Of a DNA stretch of 64,000 bases, positions 52,182-64,000 are shown piece after piece. Numbering within the stretch: the first letter of the stretch is position 1; each line of letters opens with the position of its first letter. This DNA comes from an uncultured Desulfosarcina sp. Its GTDB lineage: Bacteria; Desulfobacterota; Desulfobacteria; Desulfobacterales; Desulfosarcinaceae. Location of the stretch: NCBI GenBank assembly GCA_963674945.2, contig CAXXWQ010000004.1:960001-1024000 (forward strand), given 5' to 3'. The notes beneath the pieces were generated by a model. That model searched no databases. It was not told where the DNA came from and saw nothing but the letters and a program-made list of their open reading frames with translations. The translations under genes were made by a program, and so were the position numbers.

Positions 52182-54637
52182 CAGAACACTGCATCTCCGG
52201 GAAAACTATGTGACACCTCCGGCATGATTTGAGGTGCTGCAGCCATTTAGTTCGAATATCATTTGCAGCTCGGTACCGGGGTATTTTACCTGCGCACTGT
52301 TCAGATGCGCAAACAGTTGGCAAAGAGCCCGATTGGCCGCTGGGAACGAAGCGCCGTGCAATCGTATATTCAATTGCTGATTTTCAATATCGGGCAGTAC
52401 ATCGCCTTCGGTCTGGAACAGTGTCTGGAGAAGACTCCGTGCATCCGACGAGTTTACCGTCGGACCCGTGAGCAACCCAACCATTGCCGTCTCTGCACGA
52501 TATGCAATCATACGAACCGTGTCCATCAGGCGTTTTCTGCCCGGTTGTAAACGTAAAAATTTATCTTTTGCTTCAAGTTCTCCCCACGTGATGTGTTTAC
52601 TTGTCTGTTTTCGTTTTTCTTTCAACTCGCTGAGTTGATACTCCATCTTTTCGATTTCTTCTAACAGCTCGGCCTTTTTCTCTATCCACTTCTTAAACTT
52701 TACCGGTTTGTCTTCATTTTCAGGGTGAATGGTCATCTCGGCAAAACAGGCACGACGATATCGTAGCTTGTTCTGCAACGAATTACGGGATTGATTCAAT
52801 TGCCGCCAAACGGGGTTGATTACCCGTTCGGTATCAGGAAATTCAACGACACCATAATCTAAAAGCACATCGATATCAAAATGTTGCATCATATAGTTGA
52901 AAAAGTTTTCCTGACACCACCGGCTGAACATGCGTGCTGCCAATTGAGTATGCGGCAAATCGAAAGCGGTGCTGATTACGCTGGTCTGGTGTCCGGAATC
53001 GGTCAGTTTTCGCACTTGTCGCATCCATGTTGCACCCTTACCAGATCCCACCAAACTACCCATTTCGCAAAGCCGCATCTTCACCACCTCTTTGTTTGGC
53101 ATCGCAACTTCATACTCGGTGAACCAATGCTCCGGCCATGATTCACCAGGATGCTTATGATACGTCATGCAGCCGATTCGATGGCGATCCCACATTTCCT
53201 TGAAGAATGCGGGACTATATCCTTCCCTGTCGAAAACAAGAACGAACCGGCATAAACATGGGTTCTCTTGTAGTTGCTGCAAACCGGGTTGATTCGGAAC
53301 GTCTTGCAACAACCGGGGAACGATATCGTCTCTTAAAACCGCCAATAATCCAGGATCGATCTGCTTTTCGACGACAAAAAAAGGTCGGCCAATCGCATCG
53401 TTAACCCAATAGTCGGTAATGCCCCTCATGCACAATCGTTCCCGGGACACGTAGCGGCGCGGTAGTCGGGTCAATTTTCCATGATAAACACGTACATGCC
53501 CGTCAACATAAAGCGCGCCAACCGATTCGGGCGCCTGTTCCATCCAGTATTTACCGAGGTATGCGGCCCACTTTTCCGCGCCGTGGTCTGCGCTCAACGC
53601 ATCCATCTTGTAACGCAAACAGCGAACCTCCGGTGCACGATCCAAGCCCAATAACTTACCAAATTCTCCCGGAGCATGGCCTCGTATTTTTTCTGTCGTC
53701 TTGATCCTGCATAAGGCCATAAACGAAAGCAGCAACAAGACATGAAAGATCGTGTAATAGCCTTTGACTTGGCCGAGGAACTGTTTTGCGCCGGTAAACA
53801 ACCCGTTTGCCACCAATGACGGTATCGCACAAAGAACGCCTGCTTTGGGAACGTCCAGGCATCTGTCAAAACGAACCGGCGCACCAACCATTTTGCCCAA
53901 TGATGCCAATATGCGTTCCCCGACTCGGTTGCAAGCCGTCCCCATACCATCGGCAGCAGCCATGTCGACCATGTCCCGATCTGATTTGGTTAGACACGGT
54001 TCACCAATCCTTGATTCGATTAACCGACCATCATCTATAGCTTTGCGAAACGTATCGTATTTAATGCCAAGTTCCAGGGCGGCATCTTTTTTCGAGCACC
54101 CTTGATCCAGTAAACGTTGGGCTTGTTCAAGCACCTCAGGTTTGAAAACCTTGCCGCCGCGTCGTCCCCGCCGCTGAACGAAAAATGCCTCGGCGCCGCC
54201 GGACCTGAGTTTGTTCACGGATCGGATGACATTGCTCTTGGATACGCCGAATGTGTTTTGGATATCGATCTGGCGGCAAGCTCCGGATTCAACCAGTTGG
54301 GCTGTTATCATCCGAAACATTCGTTGATCGCCTTGTCTGTGAGAATAAATCGGAACGGTCGATAGAAAATAGGTCCAGGTCGTATCGTCACGAAATACAC
54401 TGACAAGCCCGTTGATTTGTCTTGCACCGCGAGGAATAAGTGGTAGTATCTGTTGAGGCATGGCATCCTTTTCCTTTCATTTATCCGCCAAGATAATAAG
54501 GTTAAAGGTGCCATGTTCATTTTCCGGTTGCAATACCTTACCGGCCTGCTGGATTCAGACTCCTATCTTTCTGTTTTTCAACCACTTACATTATGTTTTG
54601 CTTGCCATATGCAACAATTAGGAAATCAAGTTTCCTG
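52182..54637 (-). mobile_element. 2456-bp insertion sequence (ISNCY-like/unclassified) with 5-bp TSD ATGTT
   Basis: TSD at 52177-52181 and 54638-54642; imperfect IRs CAGAACACTGCATCTCC / CAGGAAACTTGATTTCC. Confidence 0.88.
52206..54461 (-). CDS. Large putative transposase (751 aa)
   Basis: N-terminal HTH; YVDGH, FDREG and RWCQENFF DDE-like motifs. Confidence 0.88.
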   Translation of the reverse strand: MPQQILPLIPRGARQINGLVSVFRDDTTWTYFLSTVPIYSHRQGDQRMFRMITAQLVESGACRQIDIQNTFGVSKSNVIRSVNKLRSGGAEAFFVQRRGRRGGKVFKPEVLEQAQRLLDQGCSKKDAALELGIKYDTFRKAIDDGRLIESRIGEPCLTKSDRDMVDMAAADGMGTACNRVGERILASLGKMVGAPVRFDRCLDVPKAGVLCAIPSLVANGLFTGAKQFLGQVKGYYTIFHVLLLLSFMALCRIKTTEKIRGHAPGEFGKLLGLDRAPEVRCLRYKMDALSADHGAEKWAAYLGKYWMEQAPESVGALYVDGHVRVYHGKLTRLPRRYVSRERLCMRGITDYWVNDAIGRPFFVVEKQIDPGLLAVLRDDIVPRLLQDVPNQPGLQQLQENPCLCRFVLVFDREGYSPAFFKEMWDRHRIGCMTYHKHPGESWPEHWFTEYEVAMPNKEVVKMRLCEMGSLVGSGKGATWMRQVRKLTDSGHQTSVISTAFDLPHTQLAARMFSRWCQENFFNYMMQHFDIDVLLDYGVVEFPDTERVINPVWRQLNQSRNSLQNKLRYRRACFAEMTIHPENEDKPVKFKKWIEKKAELLEEIEKMEYQLSELKEKRKQTSKHITWGELEAKDKFLRLQPGRKRLMDTVRMIAYRAETAMVGLLTGPTVNSSDARSLLQTLFQTEGDVLPDIENQQLNIRLHGASFPAANRALCQLFAHLNSAQVKYPGTELQMIFELNGCSTSNHAGGVT

Positions 54638-55650
54638 ATGTTAGAAAATTTCGAAAACACTTTTAATTCGAATGCAGATGTGGGGTTTTTGCCATCCGGA
54701 TGGTCGCTCTATTATGACAGCGGCAAAGTTGTATTTAATCAAGGGGCAGATAGCCATCATGGAAAATCCAGTCTTCATGCAGATGTACAATACCACCCGA
54801 CTGATTATTCAATTATCGAAACTGTTATTTCAGGGGAACCTGGCAGTACAATAGATTTGCAAATTCAGGTCAAAAGCTTACCTGAAGATGGCGCTATTGC
54901 CCAAATTCGATTTGCCATTTGGGAGGCATTTTCAAACCCTGAAGTTATTATGACTTCATATTCAAATCCCAACAATGAATGGGTTACAATAAGATTAGAT
55001 GAAATAGAAATTGATTCTGATGGCGAATTCATCTTCGAAATCAGTATCGCACAAGTGAACTCCGCCGGATATACGGATGTATATTTTGATTGCCTCACTT
55101 CCAATGATAGTAACCTGCAATTGAAAAATAAAGTGACCGAATTTTCTGTAACGTTTCAAGCGAACGTTGGGGGATCTATAACAGGTGACCTGGTTCAGGA
55201 GGTTCGTGATGGTGGCGATTGTACGCCTGTGACAGCAGTTGCCAATCAAGGATACATGTTCACTGGTTGGAGTGGTGACTATACCGGCACTGAGAACACG
55301 CTAACCATTACCAACGTAACTTCCGACATGACGATTATTGCAAACTTTACACAAACCCGTGGCGGCGTCGATGTCGGTGATGGTGGGGGTGGCGGTGGCT
55401 GCTTTATCAGCACACTGACAAGATAATTATCCCGATTTTCCCTTTTAAAAAAAGACGGTCATCAAAAAATGGGACCGCCATAGTTCTCCTTCGCCTGCAT
55501 TTGTAAACAGTATAAGCGTTGTGATATCAACAACCTGTACGACCTAAAACAGATCTATCGGGATAAGAGGCAATGTCTCACACAGCATCCTGACTGATAC
55601 GAGTGAAAAGAGGGATTGCGGGAAGTATGTTAATTCGCCAGAGATCGCAT

Positions 55651-56271
55651 TCACAGACGAAACGAATCTCGATATTTTTTTGCCAGTGGGTCCTCCCCGT
55701 TCGGAAACATGGCACCGAATGGTTCAAAGACTTCGATATCCGTCAACGTACAAAAGTGCATGCCTTTTTTGCTACCCGTCATCATCAATGGCCTGGCTTT
55801 TTGAACATCCAACCCGCCATTCGAATTGAGGACCTCATCGGCCACTTCCAGGCGCAGCAATTTCCCCATGACCAGCACATAATTTGTCTCTTCATAGGTT
55901 TTGAACAATTCGCATTCCATCCAAGCGTAGCTTCCGGCAATTCCAGGAGCACGAATTGTTTCCGAGGGCTTCTCATTCAATCCTGCCAACTCGAATTCAT
56001 CGACCTCCGGCAGAGAGTACTTTGCCGTGGGGACGACCTTGTCCGAAAAATCGATACCCACCAGATTCACCACGAACTCTCGCGTTTCCCGGATATTGAC
56101 CAACGTATCTCTTCTGAAGGACGAGGCGAGACAAATCAGGTCTAAGGGGCGAAGCACCGGCATGATGCAGGAATAGGGCGCGATGTTTCGCACGCCATCT
56201 TGGCTGAGGGTTGATATCAATGCCACGGGCAGCGGCATGAGGCCTTCTCGCATAAAGGGTTTCAAAATCAT
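55651..56271 (-). CDS. Flavin reductase-like (DIM6/NTAB) protein
   Basis: PLPVALIST, NIAPYS, DTLVNIRETREFVVN motifs. Confidence 0.9.
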   Translation of the reverse strand: MILKPFMREGLMPLPVALISTLSQDGVRNIAPYSCIMPVLRPLDLICLASSFRRDTLVNIRETREFVVNLVGIDFSDKVVPTAKYSLPEVDEFELAGLNEKPSETIRAPGIAGSYAWMECELFKTYEETNYVLVMGKLLRLEVADEVLNSNGGLDVQKARPLMMTGSKKGMHFCTLTDIEVFEPFGAMFPNGEDPLAKKYRDSFRL

Positions 56272-56291
56272 GGTATTTCTCCCCCACTTTT

Positions 56292-56912
56292 TCAAAGACA
56301 ATCCCGGCAGACCCTTTGTCCGCCCGAAGTTTCCATTTTCGAGGGCATGGTGGGCTCACCGCAGATGGCGCAGGGTTCGGAGGGTTCAATGCGGGCTCTG
56401 GGCGGTGGCTCTATTTCCACGGCCGTGATATGGAAAAGTTCTTCCGCGGGAGTTTCAAGGATCTGTCGGGCGCGCTCCAAATGAATCTCATTGAACCGCT
56501 GCCTCTCCTCGTCCGCAATATTGCCGTCAATCACTTTCCGGATCAGTCCCATGTGTTCCTTGTCCGGCCGGAAAGCGTTTGTCCTCAAGGAGACCCTGAC
56601 GCCACTTCCCGTATTCCGGGAAAAGAGTGTCAAGACCATCTTGCCGTGGTCCTTGTAGATAAAATTGCCCTTGCCGAAGGTGCATCCCGTGAGCACCTGC
56701 ACCGCATCGGCCGAGCAGGCGTCCGTCTCCACGACGGCCACCACCTCTTCATCCTCGGCCCGGCTCGCCCGCAAATGGTCCAGCGCAGTTCGAGCCGCCT
56801 TAAAGCCAATGGAGAGGCCCGGGCAAACATGGCCATGAAACGCCTTGCATTTTTTGAAATCCTCGCTGTTCATGATATCGTCTGCTGTCATGATCGGCAT
56901 CCTTTCCATCAA
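56292..56912 (-). CDS. FmdE-family protein with C-terminal Zn finger
   Basis: FHGHVCPG, ETDACSADAVQVLTGCTFGKGN, CAICGE...CRDC motifs. Confidence 0.92.
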   Translation of the reverse strand: MMERMPIMTADDIMNSEDFKKCKAFHGHVCPGLSIGFKAARTALDHLRASRAEDEEVVAVVETDACSADAVQVLTGCTFGKGNFIYKDHGKMVLTLFSRNTGSGVRVSLRTNAFRPDKEHMGLIRKVIDGNIADEERQRFNEIHLERARQILETPAEELFHITAVEIEPPPRARIEPSEPCAICGEPTMPSKMETSGGQRVCRDCL

Positions 56913-58006
56913 TTTACAAACTTCGCTTTTTGTCCGATGGGACCGTAATCGTTCTGCATGCTTTGATATACGGGATTTCCCACTAAAAATGTATAAATTT
57001 CATCCGCTTTTTGTTGCAGGTTCACATCTTCAAACTGCTTTTCGAATAATATTTTCCCAATCGCATAAGCATCGGCCAATGCCGTACAGATGTTGGTCGT
57101 GTACCAGTTAAACGGATGGAGCGTATAGACCCGGCTGGTGGAAAATGCTTTCAACGCATGATAAATTTCCGGTTTCTTCCGATAATCCTCCTGGACGAGA
57201 GCTATTCCGCCGCAATCGATGAAAACAACGTCCGGATTCAATTTCAACAACGTCTCCTTGTCCATGACCACATGGCTGCCGATACTGGCTTGAACATGTT
57301 CGGCAATGTTTCTTGCACCAACCCATGTAAACGGGATATAACGTTTTTCCGTACTTTCAATGCCTTGGATACCGCGGTAACCAATGCCGCCAACATAGAC
57401 TGTCGGTTTCGAATCTTCGGGGATCACCTCGGTCCGCAAGCGCATGTCCTTTCGAAGGGATTCGATATATGCCACAACCTCATCGGCCCGTTTCTCACGG
57501 TTCAAAATTCTCCCGGACGTGCGGATGGCATCGTAGACAGCTTCATCGAAAGTAGCGAAAGCACCATAACTCAATACTACCACAGGAATTCCAACGGTCC
57601 GCGCTACCTCATCCGCCAGTGAGGCGTCCATGTAAGTAATGAATATCACCTGCGGTTTGAGTGCAAGCAAGGCTTCAAGGTCCGGCTTCTTGTTGATGCC
57701 GGCAGGACCGCCCGGTCCGCAACGGGGCAATTTGGAAAGTTCCGGGTGAGCAATCCAGTATGGTCGGCCGCCGGGGTTCATTTTTTCCATATCTTCCACG
57801 CCGACGACTTTCGACGCTGCCTGAAGATAGACAATCAACCGAAGCGCGCCAGGCCCCAAACAAACGATCCGGTCCGGATCAAAGGGGGCTGTCACGTGCC
57901 GCCCGGCCATATCTGTCACCTCGATCGTCCGGGCGGCAGTGCAAATGGTAGATAGCGCCAGTATTACGGCAAGAACGCAGATGGAACAAAGACCGATCTT
58001 CTTCAT
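56909..58006 (-). CDS. Iron-siderophore/cobalamin-type ABC substrate-binding protein
   Basis: VTDMAGRHV, E.LL.LKP and LNPDVVFID helical-backbone fold motifs; signal peptide. Confidence 0.92.
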   Translation of the reverse strand: MKKIGLCSICVLAVILALSTICTAARTIEVTDMAGRHVTAPFDPDRIVCLGPGALRLIVYLQAASKVVGVEDMEKMNPGGRPYWIAHPELSKLPRCGPGGPAGINKKPDLEALLALKPQVIFITYMDASLADEVARTVGIPVVVLSYGAFATFDEAVYDAIRTSGRILNREKRADEVVAYIESLRKDMRLRTEVIPEDSKPTVYVGGIGYRGIQGIESTEKRYIPFTWVGARNIAEHVQASIGSHVVMDKETLLKLNPDVVFIDCGGIALVQEDYRKKPEIYHALKAFSTSRVYTLHPFNWYTTNICTALADAYAIGKILFEKQFEDVNLQQKADEIYTFLVGNPVYQSMQNDYGPIGQKAKFVN

Positions 58007-58023
58007 GTACTTCTCCTTAACAT

Positions 58024-58776
58024 CTATAGGGGCACTACGATGGTATGACCCTCGAATTGTTTTAACGCCACCTCAATACCATAAACATCTCGAATCACCT
58101 TTTCGTTCAACGTTTTCCTGTTTGAAATAAAATGAACTTTTCCTTCTTTTAAGAAGAGGAAAATTTCGGCAAACCGAACTGCGATATTCAGGTCATGAAT
58201 AGCGATAATCGTCGAGATTCCGTAGGTTTTTGAAAGGTCCCGGATCAGACGCATCACTTCGATCTGATTTTTCAAATCAAGGTTGCTTGTGGGCTCATCC
58301 AGCAGAAGAACTTTGGGTGTCTGTGCCAATGCCCGGGCGATGATGACTTTTTGAAGTTGCCCGCCGCTCAGATCACATACACGTCTCATTGAAAGCGATT
58401 CTAAACCAATTCGCTGAAGGATGCTTTCAACGATGGCATAATCTTTTGGCCCGGCTTTTAATCCCATGTGGGGTTTACGACCCATCAGAACCGTCTCGAA
58501 AACGTTCATGCCGGAATCAAAATGGCGCTGGGGCACATACCCGATATGACGGGCGACGTTTGCCCGGCGCATATCGGATATTTTTTTCCCATCCAGCAGC
58601 ACGGTCCCTCGATGAGGAGATAGAATTCGATTCAAGCATTTAAGAAGCGTCGACTTGCCGGCTCCGTTCACCCCCAGGATGCACATCATGGTACCACTTT
58701 CAACGCGAAAACTCACTTTTGAAAGCACGGGATGACTGTTATACGAAAAGCATATGCCGTCTGCGACGAACTTCAT
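58024..58776 (-). CDS. ABC transporter ATP-binding protein (FecE-like)
   Basis: GVNGAGKST, LSGGQ, LLLDEPT, HDLN motifs. Confidence 0.95.
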   Translation of the reverse strand: MKFVADGICFSYNSHPVLSKVSFRVESGTMMCILGVNGAGKSTLLKCLNRILSPHRGTVLLDGKKISDMRRANVARHIGYVPQRHFDSGMNVFETVLMGRKPHMGLKAGPKDYAIVESILQRIGLESLSMRRVCDLSGGQLQKVIIARALAQTPKVLLLDEPTSNLDLKNQIEVMRLIRDLSKTYGISTIIAIHDLNIAVRFAEIFLFLKEGKVHFISNRKTLNEKVIRDVYGIEVALKQFEGHTIVVPL

Positions 58777-59849
58777 TTGTGCTCCTTGACGAGAAAATAG
58801 AGGAACACAGGCGCTCCCAGAAACGAGGTGATCACACCCACCGGCAATGATCCGGAACCGATGAAAAACCGCCCGAAGGTATCGGCGGTAAGCAGCAATA
58901 TTGCGCCCAGAACTGCGGAAAATGGGATTAATATGCAATGATCGTCACCCACAAGACGCCTTGCGGTATGGGGTGCGATCAGACCGAGAAAACCGATGAT
59001 GCCGTGAAAACTGGTTGCCAGGGCAGCAACGATTGTCACGATGGCCATACCGGTGAGACGGATCGTATTCACACTGATACCAAGTCCTTTTGCTGTCTCA
59101 TCCCCTAAGGAAAAGGCATTTAAGTCCCACCGGAATATTACAAGGAAAGTCGAAATCAGAAACACGGCGCCTGCCAGCAATCCGATTTCCTTCCAGCTGG
59201 AACGGGCCACATCCCCGAAGGTCCAAAAAACGACCTGGGCCAGTTCAGTCTCGGTGGCAATGTATTGAATCAGGTAGATTCCCGAAAGAAACAAAGAATG
59301 CATTGCCACGCCTGCCAGAATAATGGCCGTCGGCGAGAGTCTTTTGAATTTTGCCAAAAACAGAATCACAAGGGTTGCGGTCATTCCGCCGGCGAAAGCG
59401 AATGCCGTAACCGAAACCATGCCTGTACCGAATATCACAATGGCGGCAGCGGCGCCGAATGCGGCCCCGTGACTGATTCCGAAGGTAATGGGGGAGCCTA
59501 AGGGATTTCGCAAAAGCGTCTGCAGACATAGTCCCGACAGGGAAAGTCCCCAACCGCAAAGGATGGCAGCCACCACTCTTGGCAGCCGGATATTGGTAAT
59601 CACCACGGCGGTGGTGGCATCGGTGTTGCCAGTCAGTGCGCCGAACAACCCTTTTACAGGGATATCATAGGCCCCTTTTGCAACCGCAAATACGGCGACG
59701 AGAAAAATCACCCCGAGAAACAAAGCCAAGAGATAGTACTTTTTGTGGACGTGTTTCAAATAGACGGACGTAATGGTGCCGGGGGATGCGCCATACTGGT
59801 TGCCGGAATCTTTGATTGTACTGGTAAAATGTTCTATCCCACTTTCCAC
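58773..59849 (-). CDS. FecCD/BtuC-family ABC permease
   Basis: IRLPR, LRNPLG.P, G.IGFLGLIAPH, LPVG motifs. Confidence 0.95.
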   Translation of the reverse strand: MESGIEHFTSTIKDSGNQYGASPGTITSVYLKHVHKKYYLLALFLGVIFLVAVFAVAKGAYDIPVKGLFGALTGNTDATTAVVITNIRLPRVVAAILCGWGLSLSGLCLQTLLRNPLGSPITFGISHGAAFGAAAAIVIFGTGMVSVTAFAFAGGMTATLVILFLAKFKRLSPTAIILAGVAMHSLFLSGIYLIQYIATETELAQVVFWTFGDVARSSWKEIGLLAGAVFLISTFLVIFRWDLNAFSLGDETAKGLGISVNTIRLTGMAIVTIVAALATSFHGIIGFLGLIAPHTARRLVGDDHCILIPFSAVLGAILLLTADTFGRFFIGSGSLPVGVITSFLGAPVFLYFLVKEHK

Positions 59850-59954
59850 ACCAAAATTCCCTCTTCAACGTCTGTCGTGTGGCGAATCAAGCCGTCTTTT
59901 TCATGACAGACCAATTATTTGATCTTAGCTCCATGAATAATTCACAAGTCCGTT

Positions 59955-60015
59955 AAAAATAAAAAAGCCACGAGGTCACGTCGCAGTTCTGGTGCGATGA
60001 AACCTTCGTGGCTTT
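59955..60015 (-). terminator. Intrinsic terminator (attenuator) in the 5' leader of the ABC operon
   Basis: Minus strand AAAGCCACGA...TCGTGGCTTTTTTATTTTT, ~105 nt before the permease start. Confidence 0.75.
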
Positions 60016-60129
60016 GGTGTTCGTTACGAGAGCCCCTCCCTGTCCGGGGATGAGGCCGCTGGCAATCGGTTTCTACGAAATAGTGTGCCTGCAGGCAGTG
60101 TGGTCGGCTTCGGCCGCCGAATGACTGCC

Positions 60130-60159
60130 TTACATATTGAATCGTTCAATGGATGTCAA
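60130..60159 (-). promoter_or_regulatory. Sigma70-like promoter with palindromic operator
   Basis: TTGACA (60154-60159) with a weak -10; ATTGAA-TCG-TTCAAT perfect IR at 60136-60150. Confidence 0.55.
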
Positions 60160-60228
60160 GCGATTCGTCGGCGGTCGTCAATGGATAACAATGGGGTTAA
60201 TGGAACCGTTGTTTGCCAAAAGGTTAGA

Positions 60229-60665
60229 CTACATCTCAAATTGAATCCCGACCACGCCGTTGATGCCGGGCATGGGATAGCCGGGCTGGTACTCGTAGTC
60301 CACATCGGTCAGATTCTCGCCGGCCACGAACAGTTCTCCTTTATATTTGCCGGCCATCCAGTCGAACATGTAGCTGAGTTTGCCGTTAACCAGATAGTAG
60401 CTGTCCACGGTATCGTCGTTCGCGGTATCGGCCCTGCGCGTCTGCGAGTTGACATGGATCGAGGAGACATCAAATCCAGCAAGGGATGATTCCAGACACT
60501 CATGAACATGGGCGCACCACCCACCAGGGTCTTGATTTCTGCCCCCGGTCGGCTCGATCCCATGCCGCGGATGAAAATGCCGCCTCCCTCCGCCCCACCG
60601 AAGGACCCCACCGGATTGAAGCGCGACATGTTGACGCCGGGGGGCTGGCGCAAAGCGGTTTCGAT
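60229..60665 (-). pseudogene. TonB-dependent receptor remnant (plug fragment fused to last beta-strands)
   Basis: ALRQPPGVNMSR...IFIRGMG...HPLLDLMS is joined out of frame at ~60465 to ...GENLTDVDYEYQPGYPMPG...QFEM*. Confidence 0.85.
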
Positions 60666-61307
60666 CCGTTACGATGGAGAACGCCGTGAGGCATCGGCGA
60701 CTTGGCAAGCACCGCCGGAGCGAAAATGGCCACCGACTTGATGGGTGTCATGCACATGCTGACATACGGATGTTTCGATCTCGGATTTCTCAGCGGCGCA
60801 CAGGTCGATAAATTTGGAAATGTCAATTCGACGATAATCGGCGACTATTATCACCCCAAAGTCAGATTTCCCGGCTCAGGAGGCGCGAATGCCATTTCCA
60901 CCTTTTCCAAAAGGCATGTGCTGATAATGGTGCATCGAAAACATCAATTTGTGGATAAGGTTGATTATCTCACTTCTCCCGGATATTTTACCGGCCCAGG
61001 CCAACGCGAAGCGGCCGGTTGTCGCCCGGGCAGCGGGCCTTGCGCGGTTATTACGACATTGGGAACTCTTAAATTCGATGATGAAACCAAAGAAATGTAT
61101 TTGGATACGGTCCATCCGAATGTGACGGTGGAACAAGTCAAGGAAAATACAACCTGGGATCTCAAAGTATCACCCAACGTCGGCGTAACAGAGCCGCCGA
61201 CCGTTGAAGAGATCCGGATTATGCGCGAAGAACTGGATCCTTATGCCATTTACCTCAAGAGGGAAGAATTTCAAAAAAAGGCGATCGAATTTTTAATTAA
61301 CAAATAA
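60663..61307 (+). pseudogene. CoA-transferase beta subunit (GctB-like), 5'-truncated
   Basis: GFLSGAQVDKFGNVNST, PGSGGA and FVDKVDYLTSPG motifs; N-terminus and alpha subunit absent, in-frame TGA near 60687. Confidence 0.8.
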
Positions 61308-61354
61308 GATATTTTTGAACTCAGGGAAGTCTTGAAAGTCTGAAAGCAGTTACG

Positions 61355-62464
61355 TTATGCATAAAACCCGCGTGCATCGACGCGTTCTTTCTCCAGTCCT
61401 TTTTGTGTGAGCAGATAGAACTCGTCATACTGATTGACACAATGACTCACGGCGACGGGAACGATGCTTAGGCGCTGCCCGATTTTCGGTGGCGTTTTGC
61501 ATCGGCTGACGTCGACCCAGCCGTGCTCTTCGTGGAGACGGAAAATGCGCGCCTCGGGATATTCGGGGATAAAGCCCATTTCGAGATTCTCGTGCCGCAA
61601 AAGCTGCTTGGCGGACAAGGCCTTGGCGCCGGCGTCGATGATCACCTGACCGGCAACGACGTCCGAAACCACGGTGGCGATCACGCGGGCCGCACATTCG
61701 TCGAGTGTGCAATGCTCAAATTTTAGGCTGAAATAATCCTGATAAACGGCCGTGCCGGCCCGGATTTCGTTGACGTACTTCACCCGATGGGTGTTGAAAA
61801 TCGACGGGGTCGAGCCGGACGAAACGATTTTGGGTTTGAGGCCGGCGGCACACAAGGCCTCGTGGGCCGGTTCCCACAACCGGTTGATCTGTTTGAAGCT
61901 GTCGGCTGATCCGGCGGCATCGCCGTAAAGGTGACCCAGATAAAGCTGAACGCCGTCGAAGCGAAGGCCCTTGCGATCGGCGGCCAAACGGGCGAGACGG
62001 GTGACTTGTCCGGGATCGGCCACGCCGCAGCGGTGAAGCCCCGCGTCGAACATGATCAGAATACCGATGGTCGATTGATGAACGGCAGCGGCATCTGCCA
62101 GTTGGTCGATCAGATACTCGGTGTCGGCGGCAACACGGATGCAGTGCGTGCACGCCAATCTGGCCAAGGATGTGGCACGCCACTTACCCACCGCCGGATA
62201 GGCGACCAGGATATCGAGATCTTGGATTGCCGACATGACCTTGGCCTCGCCGACCTTGGCCACGGCAATGCCAACGGCCCCGGCCTCGAGCTGCATCCGG
62301 GCAATGCGAAGGGATTTGTGCGTCTTGATATGGGGGCGGACGGCGAACCCGTTGCGGCCCCCATACTCCTGGACCCGCCGGACATTTTTTCTGGCAATGG
62401 CCTCGTCGATCAAGAGGAAAGGCGTTGGAACGGATGCGGTGAAGGCGTCCAGGTTATCGACCAT
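61355..62464 (-). CDS. PLP-dependent fold-type III enzyme (D-threonine aldolase/D-serine dehydratase DSD1-like)
   Basis: TPFLLID, RPHIKTHK (PLP Lys), HRCG, GSTP, DAGAK, EEHG motifs; AAGGAG SD, overlaps the NAS stop. Confidence 0.9.
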   Translation of the reverse strand: MVDNLDAFTASVPTPFLLIDEAIARKNVRRVQEYGGRNGFAVRPHIKTHKSLRIARMQLEAGAVGIAVAKVGEAKVMSAIQDLDILVAYPAVGKWRATSLARLACTHCIRVAADTEYLIDQLADAAAVHQSTIGILIMFDAGLHRCGVADPGQVTRLARLAADRKGLRFDGVQLYLGHLYGDAAGSADSFKQINRLWEPAHEALCAAGLKPKIVSSGSTPSIFNTHRVKYVNEIRAGTAVYQDYFSLKFEHCTLDECAARVIATVVSDVVAGQVIIDAGAKALSAKQLLRHENLEMGFIPEYPEARIFRLHEEHGWVDVSRCKTPPKIGQRLSIVPVAVSHCVNQYDEFYLLTQKGLEKERVDARGFYA

Positions 62465-63269
62465 GATCGTTCTCCTTGACGACAAACACCGACGTGTTAT
62501 TGACCGGCGGCGTTGGCCGGATGCGCCGGTATTCCTTTAGGGGAGGGACAAGCCCACCGACATGATCCATATCGAAAAGTCGCCGCAATCCTTTTTCATA
62601 GATGCGGTAAGAAAGCTTCATCCCACCGGGCAGGCGCCCGGCCAGGTGGGTGAAAATTTCCTCCTTGGGAACGGCGTCGGCCCCCACCATGATCAGGCTG
62701 CACGGCGAAGACAGCGGCAGCAGGAAATGATCGCCCAAGACGACTTCGATGTTTCCACCAAGTCCCAACGCGTCCAACACCCGGCGCGATAGGTCGGCAT
62801 TGATGGGTTCCTTTTCAATCCCGACGCCCCGGATGCCGCATTGCTTGACCAGGGCGATCAGGCTCAGGGGCAACGGTCCGCTGCCCAGAAACACCACCCT
62901 GTCATCGGGTTTCAGATCTGCGCCTTTCGATTCCATTTCCGCCAGTTGCAGGTAGTTCGGGTAGTAGATGAATCCACTGAGTATTTTCCAGGGGGCGTCG
63001 CCGTCGATAATGGCCATGGCCCGCTGTCTTTCCAGACGCAGGCCGTGGACTTTTTTGAGCCGGGCGATTTTTTCGATGGCCGGCTGCAAAGACCTGTCGG
63101 CGATCAGCGTGTCGACCCGATGGTCGTCGACATCCAGCGCTGCCAATCGATTCAGGGTTTCCACATGCGGAAGAAATACATCCTTTGCACCGTCGAGAAT
63201 CTGCTTCTCGGTCAGATCACGGCAGTCGTCATAAATCTCCAATAGTCGATGTTTGATCTCTTCCAGCAT
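62454..63269 (-). CDS. Nicotianamine synthase-like SAM-dependent protein (copy A)
   Basis: LERQRA...FIYYPNYLQLAEME, VFLGSGPLPLSL, YEKGLR, PPVNNT motifs. Confidence 0.85.
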   Translation of the reverse strand: MLEEIKHRLLEIYDDCRDLTEKQILDGAKDVFLPHVETLNRLAALDVDDHRVDTLIADRSLQPAIEKIARLKKVHGLRLERQRAMAIIDGDAPWKILSGFIYYPNYLQLAEMESKGADLKPDDRVVFLGSGPLPLSLIALVKQCGIRGVGIEKEPINADLSRRVLDALGLGGNIEVVLGDHFLLPLSSPCSLIMVGADAVPKEEIFTHLAGRLPGGMKLSYRIYEKGLRRLFDMDHVGGLVPPLKEYRRIRPTPPVNNTSVFVVKENDHGR

Positions 63270-63274
63270 GTTTC

Positions 63275-64000
63275 TTACTTTTCCAATTTGGCCGCGACAA
63301 TCGTGTTATTGACTCTTCCCACGGGATAAAACGTCTTGACGATGCGAAAGCCGTTGATTTCGTCTTCGGTTACCGGCTCATGCAGGATGGCGCGCATGCC
63401 GGTATAGGTCCGGAAGAAAACCAGGGCATCGGTTTTGCCCCTCTCCCGCAGAATAATGCGCAAATTGCGGAAAATCCGTTCCTTGGGGTCGGCCATGGCC
63501 GCGACCAGGACCATGTCCCAATCAAGCTCCCGAAGCAGGGTTTCGTCGCCGCGGACAATTTCGACTTCCTTCTCCAACCCCAGGCAGCGAATGACCTTGC
63601 TGGACCAGTCGACGGCGTCTTCTGAAATATCCAGCCCCACGGACCGGATACCTGCCAGGCGATTAAAAAGAATGAGGCTGGAAGGCACCGGGCCGCAGCC
63701 GATGAATACCAGTCGGCTGCCACTGTCAATCCGGTTGAGTTCGATCTGGTTTCGCACCAGGGCCTCGTAGCGGGGATAGAGCGAAAAAGATTTCAAGGCT
63801 TTCCATGGGGCGTTGGATGCCAGCAGCCTTTCGGCCAGGTGAACTTCATGGATACTGAAAAAGGTGTTGTAGTAGGAACGGATGTTGGGAAGGACGGACC
63901 GGATCTCGGGTTCATCCAGAATCAGCCCGGCAAGGTGCGGGCCGGCGTCCATGTGGGCCAGGTCGTCGAGAAGCAGAAAGAGTCGATACAGGTCCTCGGG
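63275..64000 (-). CDS. Nicotianamine synthase-like SAM-dependent protein (copy B, 5' end beyond the window)
   Basis: HEVHLA...FSLYPRYEAL, VFIGCGPVPSSL, VAAMA.PK, RTYTGMR, VNNT motifs; frame open to the window edge. Confidence 0.85.
   Translation of the reverse strand, partial: PEDLYRLFLLLDDLAHMDAGPHLAGLILDEPEIRSVLPNIRSYYNTFFSIHEVHLAERLLASNAPWKALKSFSLYPRYEALVRNQIELNRIDSGSRLVFIGCGPVPSSLILFNRLAGIRSVGLDISEDAVDWSSKVIRCLGLEKEVEIVRGDETLLRELDWDMVLVAAMADPKERIFRNLRIILRERGKTDALVFFRTYTGMRAILHEPVTEDEINGFRIVKTFYPVGRVNNTIVAAKLEK

Follow-up and report, generated by a model that had tools for sequence, protein, structure and literature searches.

We analysed a window of 64,000 nucleotides from an uncultured Desulfosarcina sp. 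(GenBank assembly GCA_963674945.2, contig CAXXWQ010000004.1, positions 960,001 to 1,024,000), at the end of which three minus-strand genes lie together: two for proteins of the nicotianamine synthase (NAS) family, named here NAS1 and NAS2, and one for a fold-type-III pyridoxal phosphate (PLP) enzyme. NAS1 is cut by the window end; 63275..64000 lies within the window, and the full gene, of 295 aa, extends to window-equivalent position 64162 (L004:9275-10162, L004 being the extracted locus in which we number positions beyond the window). NAS2 (62454..63269, 271 aa) follows after a spacer of 5 nt (gaaac) between the TAA of NAS1 and its own ATG, and is divergent from it, with 28-33% (about 30%) identity. 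The PLP gene covers 61355..62464 when read from an ATG, or reaches 62485 when read from a TTG, and overlaps the NAS2 stop by 11 nt and 32 nt, respectively. To judge from the sequence, the ATG at 62464 is the likelier start, because it has an AAGGAGA Shine-Dalgarno motif and gives the 369-aa form seen in the protein collection. An initial annotation of this DNA had described two divergent NAS-like open reading frames (ORFs) 5 nt apart, with GCGPVP and GSGPLP motifs for S-adenosylmethionine (SAM) binding, the second overlapping a fold-III PLP gene. All of this holds: the SAM loops read FIGCGPVPSS in NAS1 and FLGSGPLPLS in NAS2, and the overlap from the likelier ATG is the one of 11 nt. The three ORFs are real genes rather than chance frames, as judged from their conservation, since orthologues of each (50-88% identity) keep the same order in many genomes. 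No further NAS-family genes are present in this genome.

Both proteins pass the Pfam model of the NAS family (PF03059, cut-off 27.1 bits), NAS1 with 67.8 and NAS2 with 82.9 bits; the model also matched in Methanosarcina acetivorans, taken as a control. Profiles built from the orthologue groups place them far closer to the thermonicotianamine synthase of Methanothermobacter thermautotrophicus (MtNAS), represented by structure 3FPE, than to CntL, the NAS-like enzyme of staphylopine synthesis: 209 versus 49 bits for NAS1, and 135 versus 35 bits for NAS2. With the NCBIfam CntL equivalog model (NF033601, cut-off 350 bits) the pair scores only 29.3 and 28.9 bits. The profile search that the initial annotation had proposed thus supports NAS membership, on the MtNAS side. 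Residues E81 and Y107 of MtNAS, the first being the one mutated in entry 3FPG (E81Q) and the second the tyrosine that we take to be catalytic, align with E106 and Y132 of NAS1 and with E80 and Y106 of NAS2. In deeper alignments this Glu and Tyr, and the GxGPxP SAM loop, are invariant in 55 NAS1-side and 75 NAS2-side sequences. An AlphaFold (AF2) model of NAS1 (mean predicted confidence, pLDDT, 89.5) has the MtNAS-like arrangement of an N-terminal helical domain and a Rossmann domain. Its best Foldseek match is 3fpe_A (TM-scores 0.83/0.93, root-mean-square deviation 1.7 A, 36% identity), and the structure search ranks MtNAS first, CntL next and methyltransferases far behind. By family profile, aligned residues and, for NAS1, predicted fold, NAS1 and NAS2 truly belong to the NAS family and have the catalytic residues of MtNAS. 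Generic methyltransferase Pfam models stay below threshold for both proteins, whereas the NAS model is exceeded, and we rejected an identity as ordinary class-I methyltransferases. Grouping with such enzymes, with loss of the NAS active site, was the outcome named in advance as fatal to the annotation; what was found is a conserved Glu/Tyr pair and the fold of 3fpe.

The NAS1 clade carries a further feature, a His-rich stretch followed by GCCxxC (MHD-N-x-H-x-HE...GCCxxC) within the first 25 codons (window-equivalent 64088-64162). Its three cysteines are nearly invariant across the clade, Methanothrix included, and the motif is absent from the single NAS of Methanosphaera type. AlphaFold confidence is low over this segment, which we consider a candidate metal-binding tail.

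The trio forms the last genes of an operon of nine to ten genes that continues upstream past the window end. Because genes of a NikKLMQO-type nickel/cobalt importer precede NAS1 on the same strand, the trio is the 3' end of an importer operon. Its first gene (L004:15196-16422, minus strand) encodes a porin of the LbtU siderophore family (NCBIfam NF033652, 269.3 bits, cut-off 90). There follow, likewise on the minus strand upstream of NAS1, genes for a DUF4198 protein of NikK type (204 bits), a NikL-family protein split over two ORFs (NF058648, 97.3 bits, cut-off 100), the S component CbiM/NikM (NF004905, 195 bits, cut-off 173) and the T component CbiQ/NikQ (TIGR02454, 118.6, cut-off 111.8) of an energy-coupling factor (ECF) transporter, and a fused double ECF ATPase (L004:10187-12346, minus strand; ECF_ATPase_2, 381, cut-off 330) that ends 24 nt before NAS1. 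All the parts by which a NikKLMQO-type importer is recognised, namely S, T and ATPase components with the NikK and NikL accessories in one operon, are therefore represented, NikL being the one that falls just under its cut-off. The double ATPase bears a C-terminal tail of about 90 residues, very rich in His and Asp and shared at the least by D. ovata (aligned up to residue 719), which is a candidate cytoplasmic Ni/Co-binding tail. The initial annotation had advised looking upstream of the window for cntM, the opine dehydrogenase gene, or an exporter; no opine dehydrogenase gene was found there and the operon encodes no exporter, and what was found is the LbtU porin and the NikKLMQO importer.

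The two NAS genes are inherited together. In a set of 61 related genomes, our own included, NAS2 is carried by 10, and all 10 have NAS1 directly beside it; besides our own genome, these are 8 of the 30 congeneric ones and one from another family. Where loci were fetched, the trio is complete in eight of nine, the ninth contig ending after NAS2. A scan with one genome per species gave 213 pattern matches, of which 125 were confirmed and the best 80 kept, yielding 77 loci. Of these 77, 58 have NAS1 immediately upstream of NAS2. Of the 62 whose upstream sequence reaches 950 nt or more, 52 do, the exceptions being nine loci of anaerobic methanotrophic archaea (ANME) or Methanosarcinales and one Desulfobacterales metagenome-assembled genome (MAG). 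In the latter (L052:5992-7956) NAS2 and the PLP gene occur without NAS1 despite a 6-kb upstream flank, where an unrelated ORF of 443 aa lies on the opposite strand. Synteny thus bears out, for the NAS1-NAS2 pair, the wide co-inheritance that the annotation had suggested checking. Carriers of the pair include Desulfobacterales, Desulfatiglandales, a Desulfobulbaceae MAG, NaphS2, Methanothrix and a Victivallales MAG, and the trio, with the methyltransferase and importer genes described below, occurs in the cultivable strains Desulfosarcina variabilis, D. ovata, D. cetonica, Desulfonema magnum and Desulfospira joergensenii. The NAS1-related family is small: a search of 1.84 billion representative sequences with NAS1 returned 786 matches at E<=1e-3 and 25 at E<=1e-30. 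Recurrent neighbours include TonB receptors (four NAS loci), ExbB and, in four archaeal loci, a radical-SAM protein.

Some observations on individual genomes stand beside these counts. The G+C content is 0.53-0.60 across the trio (window 61000-64000) versus about 0.50 in the preceding 6 kb; together with the presence of the pair in just 8 of the 30 congeneric genomes, this fits an accessory island. In the draft genome of D. cetonica (L020/L028) the matches to NAS1, the PLP gene and CbiM are each split in two frames, through either draft sequencing error or pseudogenisation of the whole system. Another uncultured Desulfosarcina (G023) has a frameshifted remnant of a second PLP gene (L018:16625-16988, residues 256-376, 76-86% identity), which lies some 4 kb downstream of the intact trio, beside a second and divergent NikKLMQO cluster.

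Phylogenies were computed with FastTree (150 rows) and with IQ-TREE in a quick mode (85 rows, rooted on 10 distant representatives); rows were chosen from 27 loci and from full-length representatives, and five near-identical archaeal rows were dropped. NAS1 and NAS2 form separate clades (SH-aLRT 89 and 97, respectively), whose lineage groupings, judged by eye, are alike. In ANME and Methanosarcinales both NAS paralogues fall inside the NAS2 clade, and their genes lie next to DUF4198-CbiM-CbiQ-ATPase genes. Because both paralogues sit within the NAS2 clade, the two-NAS state arose a second time in these archaea. The single NAS of Methanosphaera type emerges on the NAS1 side with FastTree and outside the NAS1/NAS2 split with IQ-TREE, the two trees differing in its placement.

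The PLP gene product has the two domains Ala_racemase_N (PF01168, 84.7 bits) and D-ser_dehydrat (PF14031, 52.2 bits), both over cut-off. Its orthologues, at 60-84% identity, are common in Desulfobacterales metagenomes, where they are annotated just as alanine racemase or as D-serine-deaminase-like. The closest solved structures (4V15, 6QKB, 7DIB, 3WQC and 3ANU) comprise D-threonine aldolases, BhcC, D-threo-3-hydroxyaspartate dehydratase and the D-serine dehydratase of chicken, and the profile of the family matches 4V15 over its full length with 162 bits. The lysine that binds PLP is kept, HIKTHK aligning with RPHAKAHK of 4V15. At two further positions the solved relatives have His and Asp or Cys (PsHvD, PgHcD or PnHaC), presumably the ligands of the catalytic divalent metal; the present family has PvNvS there, with N and S in the consensus of a 16-sequence alignment, and the window protein has PVAVS, with A in place of N. 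The BhcC model gives 136 bits against a cut-off of 690. On the loss of the metal dyad and this sub-threshold score we rejected an identity as a BhcC-type aldolase or a D-serine dehydratase. Since the dyad is lost, the enzyme is unlikely to act on beta-hydroxy D-amino acids as an aldolase or dehydratase, and the beta-hydroxy amino acid role that the initial annotation had offered for this enzyme is accordingly disfavoured. More likely, as far as its sequence goes, it would be a racemase or epimerase, with either the starter amino acid or the product (at its free alpha-amino-acid end) as substrate.

Among relatives, an orthologue of the PLP gene is found in 9 of 10 NAS-positive and in 0 of 51 NAS-negative genomes, which is to be read as a pattern and not as a statistic because kin are not independent. 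Of the NAS1-NAS2 loci, 41 extend 1300 nt or more beyond the pair on the downstream side, and the PLP gene follows the pair in 28 of them. By group, it does so in 22 of the 23 loci from named Desulfobacterales, in neither of the two from Desulfatiglandales nor of the two from Methanotrichales, and not in the single loci from Desulfobulbales and Victivallales. In a search of five pair-carrying genomes without an adjacent PLP gene, three (NaphS2, Desulfobacter curvatus and G064) proved to have an orthologue elsewhere. The co-conservation of the PLP gene with the pair, on which the earlier proposal leaned, thus stands for Desulfobacterales and for the strict co-occurrence among relatives, and fails as a universal rule.

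A fourth gene recurs with the system, encoding a class-I methyltransferase (Methyltransf_11). It is present in 12 of the 77 NAS loci, bacterial and archaeal, and adjoins the unlinked PLP gene in NaphS2 and Desulfobacter curvatus. Among the relatives it occurs in nine genomes in total, 8 of the 10 NAS-positive and 1 of the 51 NAS-negative ones (G051). Downstream of the PLP gene of D. ovata come a TonB receptor gene and then, at a distance of 5.5 kb from the PLP gene, the genes for the methyltransferase and a binding protein. The present genome carries its methyltransferase orthologue on another contig, away from the trio, in a second locus that encodes a TonB receptor, the methyltransferase, a NikA-like family-5 binding protein, two Opp-type ATPases and two permeases, one of which passes the NCBIfam cut-off for a nickel ATP-binding cassette (ABC) permease (354 versus 350 bits). 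The metal-uptake setting supposed by the initial annotation is thus borne out around the trio and at the second locus alike, by the NikKLMQO genes, the LbtU porin and the Nik-type ABC genes, and the importer operon and the second locus together narrow the reading to Ni/Co.

Further genes lie around the operon. Downstream of the trio, the minus strand of the window has family matches for a FecCD permease (58773-59849), the ATPase of a FecCD-type importer (58024-58938), a class-III binding protein (56909-58006), an FmdE-like protein (56292-56912) and a flavin-reductase-like protein (55651-56301). We infer that this set (55651..59849) belongs to the NAS system; in three relatives (L018, L021 and L022) FecCD, ATPase, binding-protein, TrmO and FmdE genes lie directly upstream of the Nik/NAS genes, and in three further loci (L074, L075 and L100) a FecCD importer set abuts NAS2. 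Upstream of the operon are a gene for a TrmO/TsaA-like SAM-binding protein (L004:17189-17770, family match) and a small ferredoxin gene. In six Desulfosarcina loci (L017-L022) a TrmO/TsaA-like gene and then a gene for an FmdE-like zinc-finger protein precede the Nik/NAS genes; the present genome lacks the FmdE copy beside the TrmO-like gene and has the FmdE gene at 56292-56912 instead.

The 1.5 kb between the PLP gene and the FecCD permease (window 59850-61350) hold gene fragments only and look like the result of decay or rearrangement: on the minus strand a C-terminal remnant of a TonB-dependent receptor (60229-60708, a weak NCBIfam match), and on the plus strand a CoA-transferase gene of which the C-terminal half is left (60702-61307, positions 98-217 of the 217 in the Pfam profile). 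The TonB fragment does not match the receptors of this type beside other NAS loci. The PLP gene of D. ovata is followed by a TonB-receptor-like gene in two pieces, with 25-28% identity to the receptor of the second locus described here. On the regulatory side, an Rfam search of the 20-kb locus gave no match, and thus no B12 riboswitch, and a NikR-type inverted repeat has no exact match. Four Desulfosarcina genomes share a conserved GC-rich hairpin with a T-run 50-100 nt 5' of the first operon gene (L004:16430-16560, and L019, L022 and L020), which is probably the terminator of the preceding gene and may be an attenuator; no operator was identified in the aligned regions 5' of the first operon gene in these four genomes. 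Unrelated to the NAS system, an ORF on the plus strand at 54593-55426 has InlB B-repeat (Flg_new) domains and, at its end, a poly-Gly stretch and a short hydrophobic tail.

From gene content, conserved residues and context, the account that we favour, and regard as reasonably probable, is that the trio is the biosynthetic end of a Ni/Co-uptake operon and makes an undescribed nicotianamine-type Ni/Co chelator. Both enzymes would use SAM as the donor of a 3-amino-3-carboxypropyl (aminobutyrate) group, each adding a single unit and setting methylthioadenosine free. Either one NAS would modify a starter amino acid and the other would extend the resulting intermediate, or NAS1 and NAS2 would work as a heteromer. 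The product would be a tri-carboxylate polyamine like thermonicotianamine, formed without an opine dehydrogenase. The PLP enzyme of Desulfobacterales would most likely serve as racemase or epimerase of the starter or of the alpha-amino-acid end of the product, as a PLP counterpart of CntK, and the co-occurring class-I methyltransferase may tailor the product. The chelator would then capture Ni (or Co) where sulfide holds the free metal very low. Uptake of the loaded chelator, or of the metal from it, would proceed via the porin or a TonB receptor and onward via the NikKLMQO, Nik-type ABC and FecCD-type importers.

The search for an opine dehydrogenase bears directly on this scheme. None lies within 10 kb on either side of the trio (20 kb read), and the Pfam Octopine_DH (PF02317) and NCBIfam staphylopine dehydrogenase (NF033600) models have no match in the whole genome, which is 98.7% complete. 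The statement of the initial annotation that no such gene follows the operon is therefore sustained at both scales, by models run without a positive control; because neither matched any control genome either, CntM is to be described as not found, which falls short of proven absence.

Several points weigh against the proposed chelator system, among them that the models behind the CntM negative matched no control genome. The operon encodes no exporter, so that secretion is at most putative. NikKLMQO-type importers are generally taken to move free ions and not chelates, which would suit a ligand kept in the cell as much as a secreted one. The NCBIfam names of the CbiM and CbiQ models say cobalt, and the metal may be Ni or Co. 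ECF components accompany the NAS genes in 19 of the 77 loci; if one counts just the 30 loci with 9 kb of flank or more, the figure is 14. Thirteen of the 41 NAS1-NAS2 loci lack the PLP gene, and two of the five searched genomes with the pair and no adjacent PLP gene have no orthologue of it. Taken as a whole, the interpretation given in the initial annotation keeps its NAS family assignment, the co-inheritance of the pair and the metal context, while the PLP gene is not universal and the beta-hydroxy idea is disfavoured.

The strongest competing explanation, which we consider unlikely but worth serious attention, is that the product stays in the cell as a Ni/Co buffer or delivery ligand, as nicotianamine does inside plant cells. 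Charged with metal by the ECF importer and its His-rich ATPase tail, it would deliver this to the maturation of Ni/Co enzymes or to tetrapyrrole chelatases. The missing exporter is what such a ligand would predict, and the NAS genes come right after the cytoplasmic ATPase with its long His-rich C-terminal tail. The S component NikM/CbiM, moreover, is one that we take to bind the bare ion, and in five archaeal loci a gene for a small CbiX-type chelatase lies by the NAS genes, in three of them between the two. However, the operon opens with an LbtU-family siderophore porin, and TonB receptors, ExbB, and FecCD-type and NikA-type importers recur beside the NAS, PLP and methyltransferase genes, which is a signature of the uptake of external chelates. 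It is also conceivable, at a distinctly lower probability, that one paralogue is the working transferase and the other its substrate-presenting or regulatory partner in an obligate heterodimer, for instance with metal sensing through the N-terminus of NAS1. The strict adjacency of NAS1 and NAS2, the similar lineage groupings of their clades, and the His-rich and GCCxxC N-terminus of the NAS1 clade, absent from Methanosphaera-type NAS and modelled with low confidence, would all suit such a division of labour, whereas the invariance of the Glu, the Tyr and the glycine-rich SAM loop in both paralogues argues against it. That the NAS-like enzymes modify something other than a chelator (a cofactor, lipid or macromolecule) amid coincidental metal-transport neighbours is very improbable: the TrmO-like SAM-binding protein is indeed a conserved neighbour in Desulfosarcina, but metal-uptake genes recur beside the NAS genes in bacteria and archaea in independent arrangements, and the nearest characterised relative, MtNAS, whose fold and catalytic residues are kept, makes a chelator.

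Compared with known systems, the probable chelator pathway combines familiar parts in a different way. MtNAS (3FPE, 3FPF, 3FPG and 3O31) is the best solved relative of both NAS1 and NAS2, which share with it the fold (as modelled for NAS1), the equivalents of Glu81 and Tyr107, the GxGPxP loop and the lack of an opine dehydrogenase partner. In the 2009 paper on the MtNAS structure, a single enzyme reportedly carries out both aminobutyrate transfers. Unlike MtNAS, the present system has two paralogues of about 30% identity, a His/Cys-rich N-terminus on NAS1, and a PLP enzyme and a methyltransferase alongside. The PLP enzyme resembles D-threonine aldolase, BhcC, D-threo-3-hydroxyaspartate dehydratase and D-serine dehydratase in its PF01168 and PF14031 architecture and its PLP-lysine motif, and departs from the D-threonine aldolase/D-serine dehydratase family in that the metal dyad is replaced and the gene is associated with NAS genes instead of amino-acid catabolism. 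As in NikKLMQO/CbiMNQO importers and the legiobactin porin LbtU, CbiM, CbiQ, NikL, DUF4198 and ECF ATPases are encoded in one operon whose first gene matches the LbtU model; unlike there, the ATPases are fused and have a His-rich tail, NikL is split, and chelator-synthesis genes are appended.

With the cnt systems (staphylopine CntKLM, pseudopaline, yersinopine and bacillopaline) the present one has in common a NAS-like aminobutyrate transferase encoded together with metal importers, and an optional enzyme for amino-acid stereochemistry, which there is CntK. The cnt operons are associated with a TonB receptor and an Opp/Nik-type ABC importer, as here, according to two sources (PMC7438024; bioRxiv 10.1101/641969). 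In contrast to the cnt systems, the CntL model scores about 29 bits against 350, no CntM was found, there are two NAS genes versus one, the candidate stereochemistry enzyme is a fold-type-III PLP enzyme versus the PLP-independent CntK, and the operon has a NikKLMQO importer of the ECF class. To judge by its section titles, the bioinformatic survey of opine zincophores (PMC7438024) was seeded on CntM, and would therefore miss this system.

Full-text literature searches did not find the gene set described, the main caveat on novelty being that a 2020 review of cntL/NAS gene neighbourhoods (Laffont and Arnoux) lay outside their coverage. Nor did they bring up a description of an importer operon with appended chelator-synthesis genes, or of a dedicated Ni/Co chelator for anaerobes of such sulfidic habitats. 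Term searches found no mention in the accessible text of PMC7438024 and PMC12454661 (Dirick et al., 2025), and the gene set is not described in the sections available of bioRxiv 10.64898/2026.08.27.747422, PMC8485483 and PMC11672702. The first of these, a 2026 preprint on NAS and YSL, mentions bacterial roots and archaeal members only, as far as its available part goes.

A broader reading, which we put forward tentatively and hold to be possible rather than probable, is that in sulfidic sediments the sulfate reducers and the methane-cycling archaea share a dedicated Ni (or Co) metallophore system built on two NAS. Within it, the design would have arisen twice, once as NAS1 plus NAS2 (bacteria and Methanothrix) and once by duplication of NAS2 (ANME and Methanosarcinales), and the system would supply Ni for carbon monoxide dehydrogenase/acetyl-CoA synthase, hydrogenases and F430 under sulfide. 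Ni and Co limit methanogenesis, anaerobic methane oxidation, carbon cycling by the acetyl-CoA pathway and hydrogen metabolism in sulfidic habitats. The locus offers a concrete and testable gene set, of two NAS, a PLP enzyme, a methyltransferase and matched importers, with cultivable carriers and an archaeal counterpart. If the interpretation is true, it would widen nicotianamine chemistry past the single-enzyme route of plants and MtNAS and the CntL plus CntM route, and would reveal a role for paired NAS.

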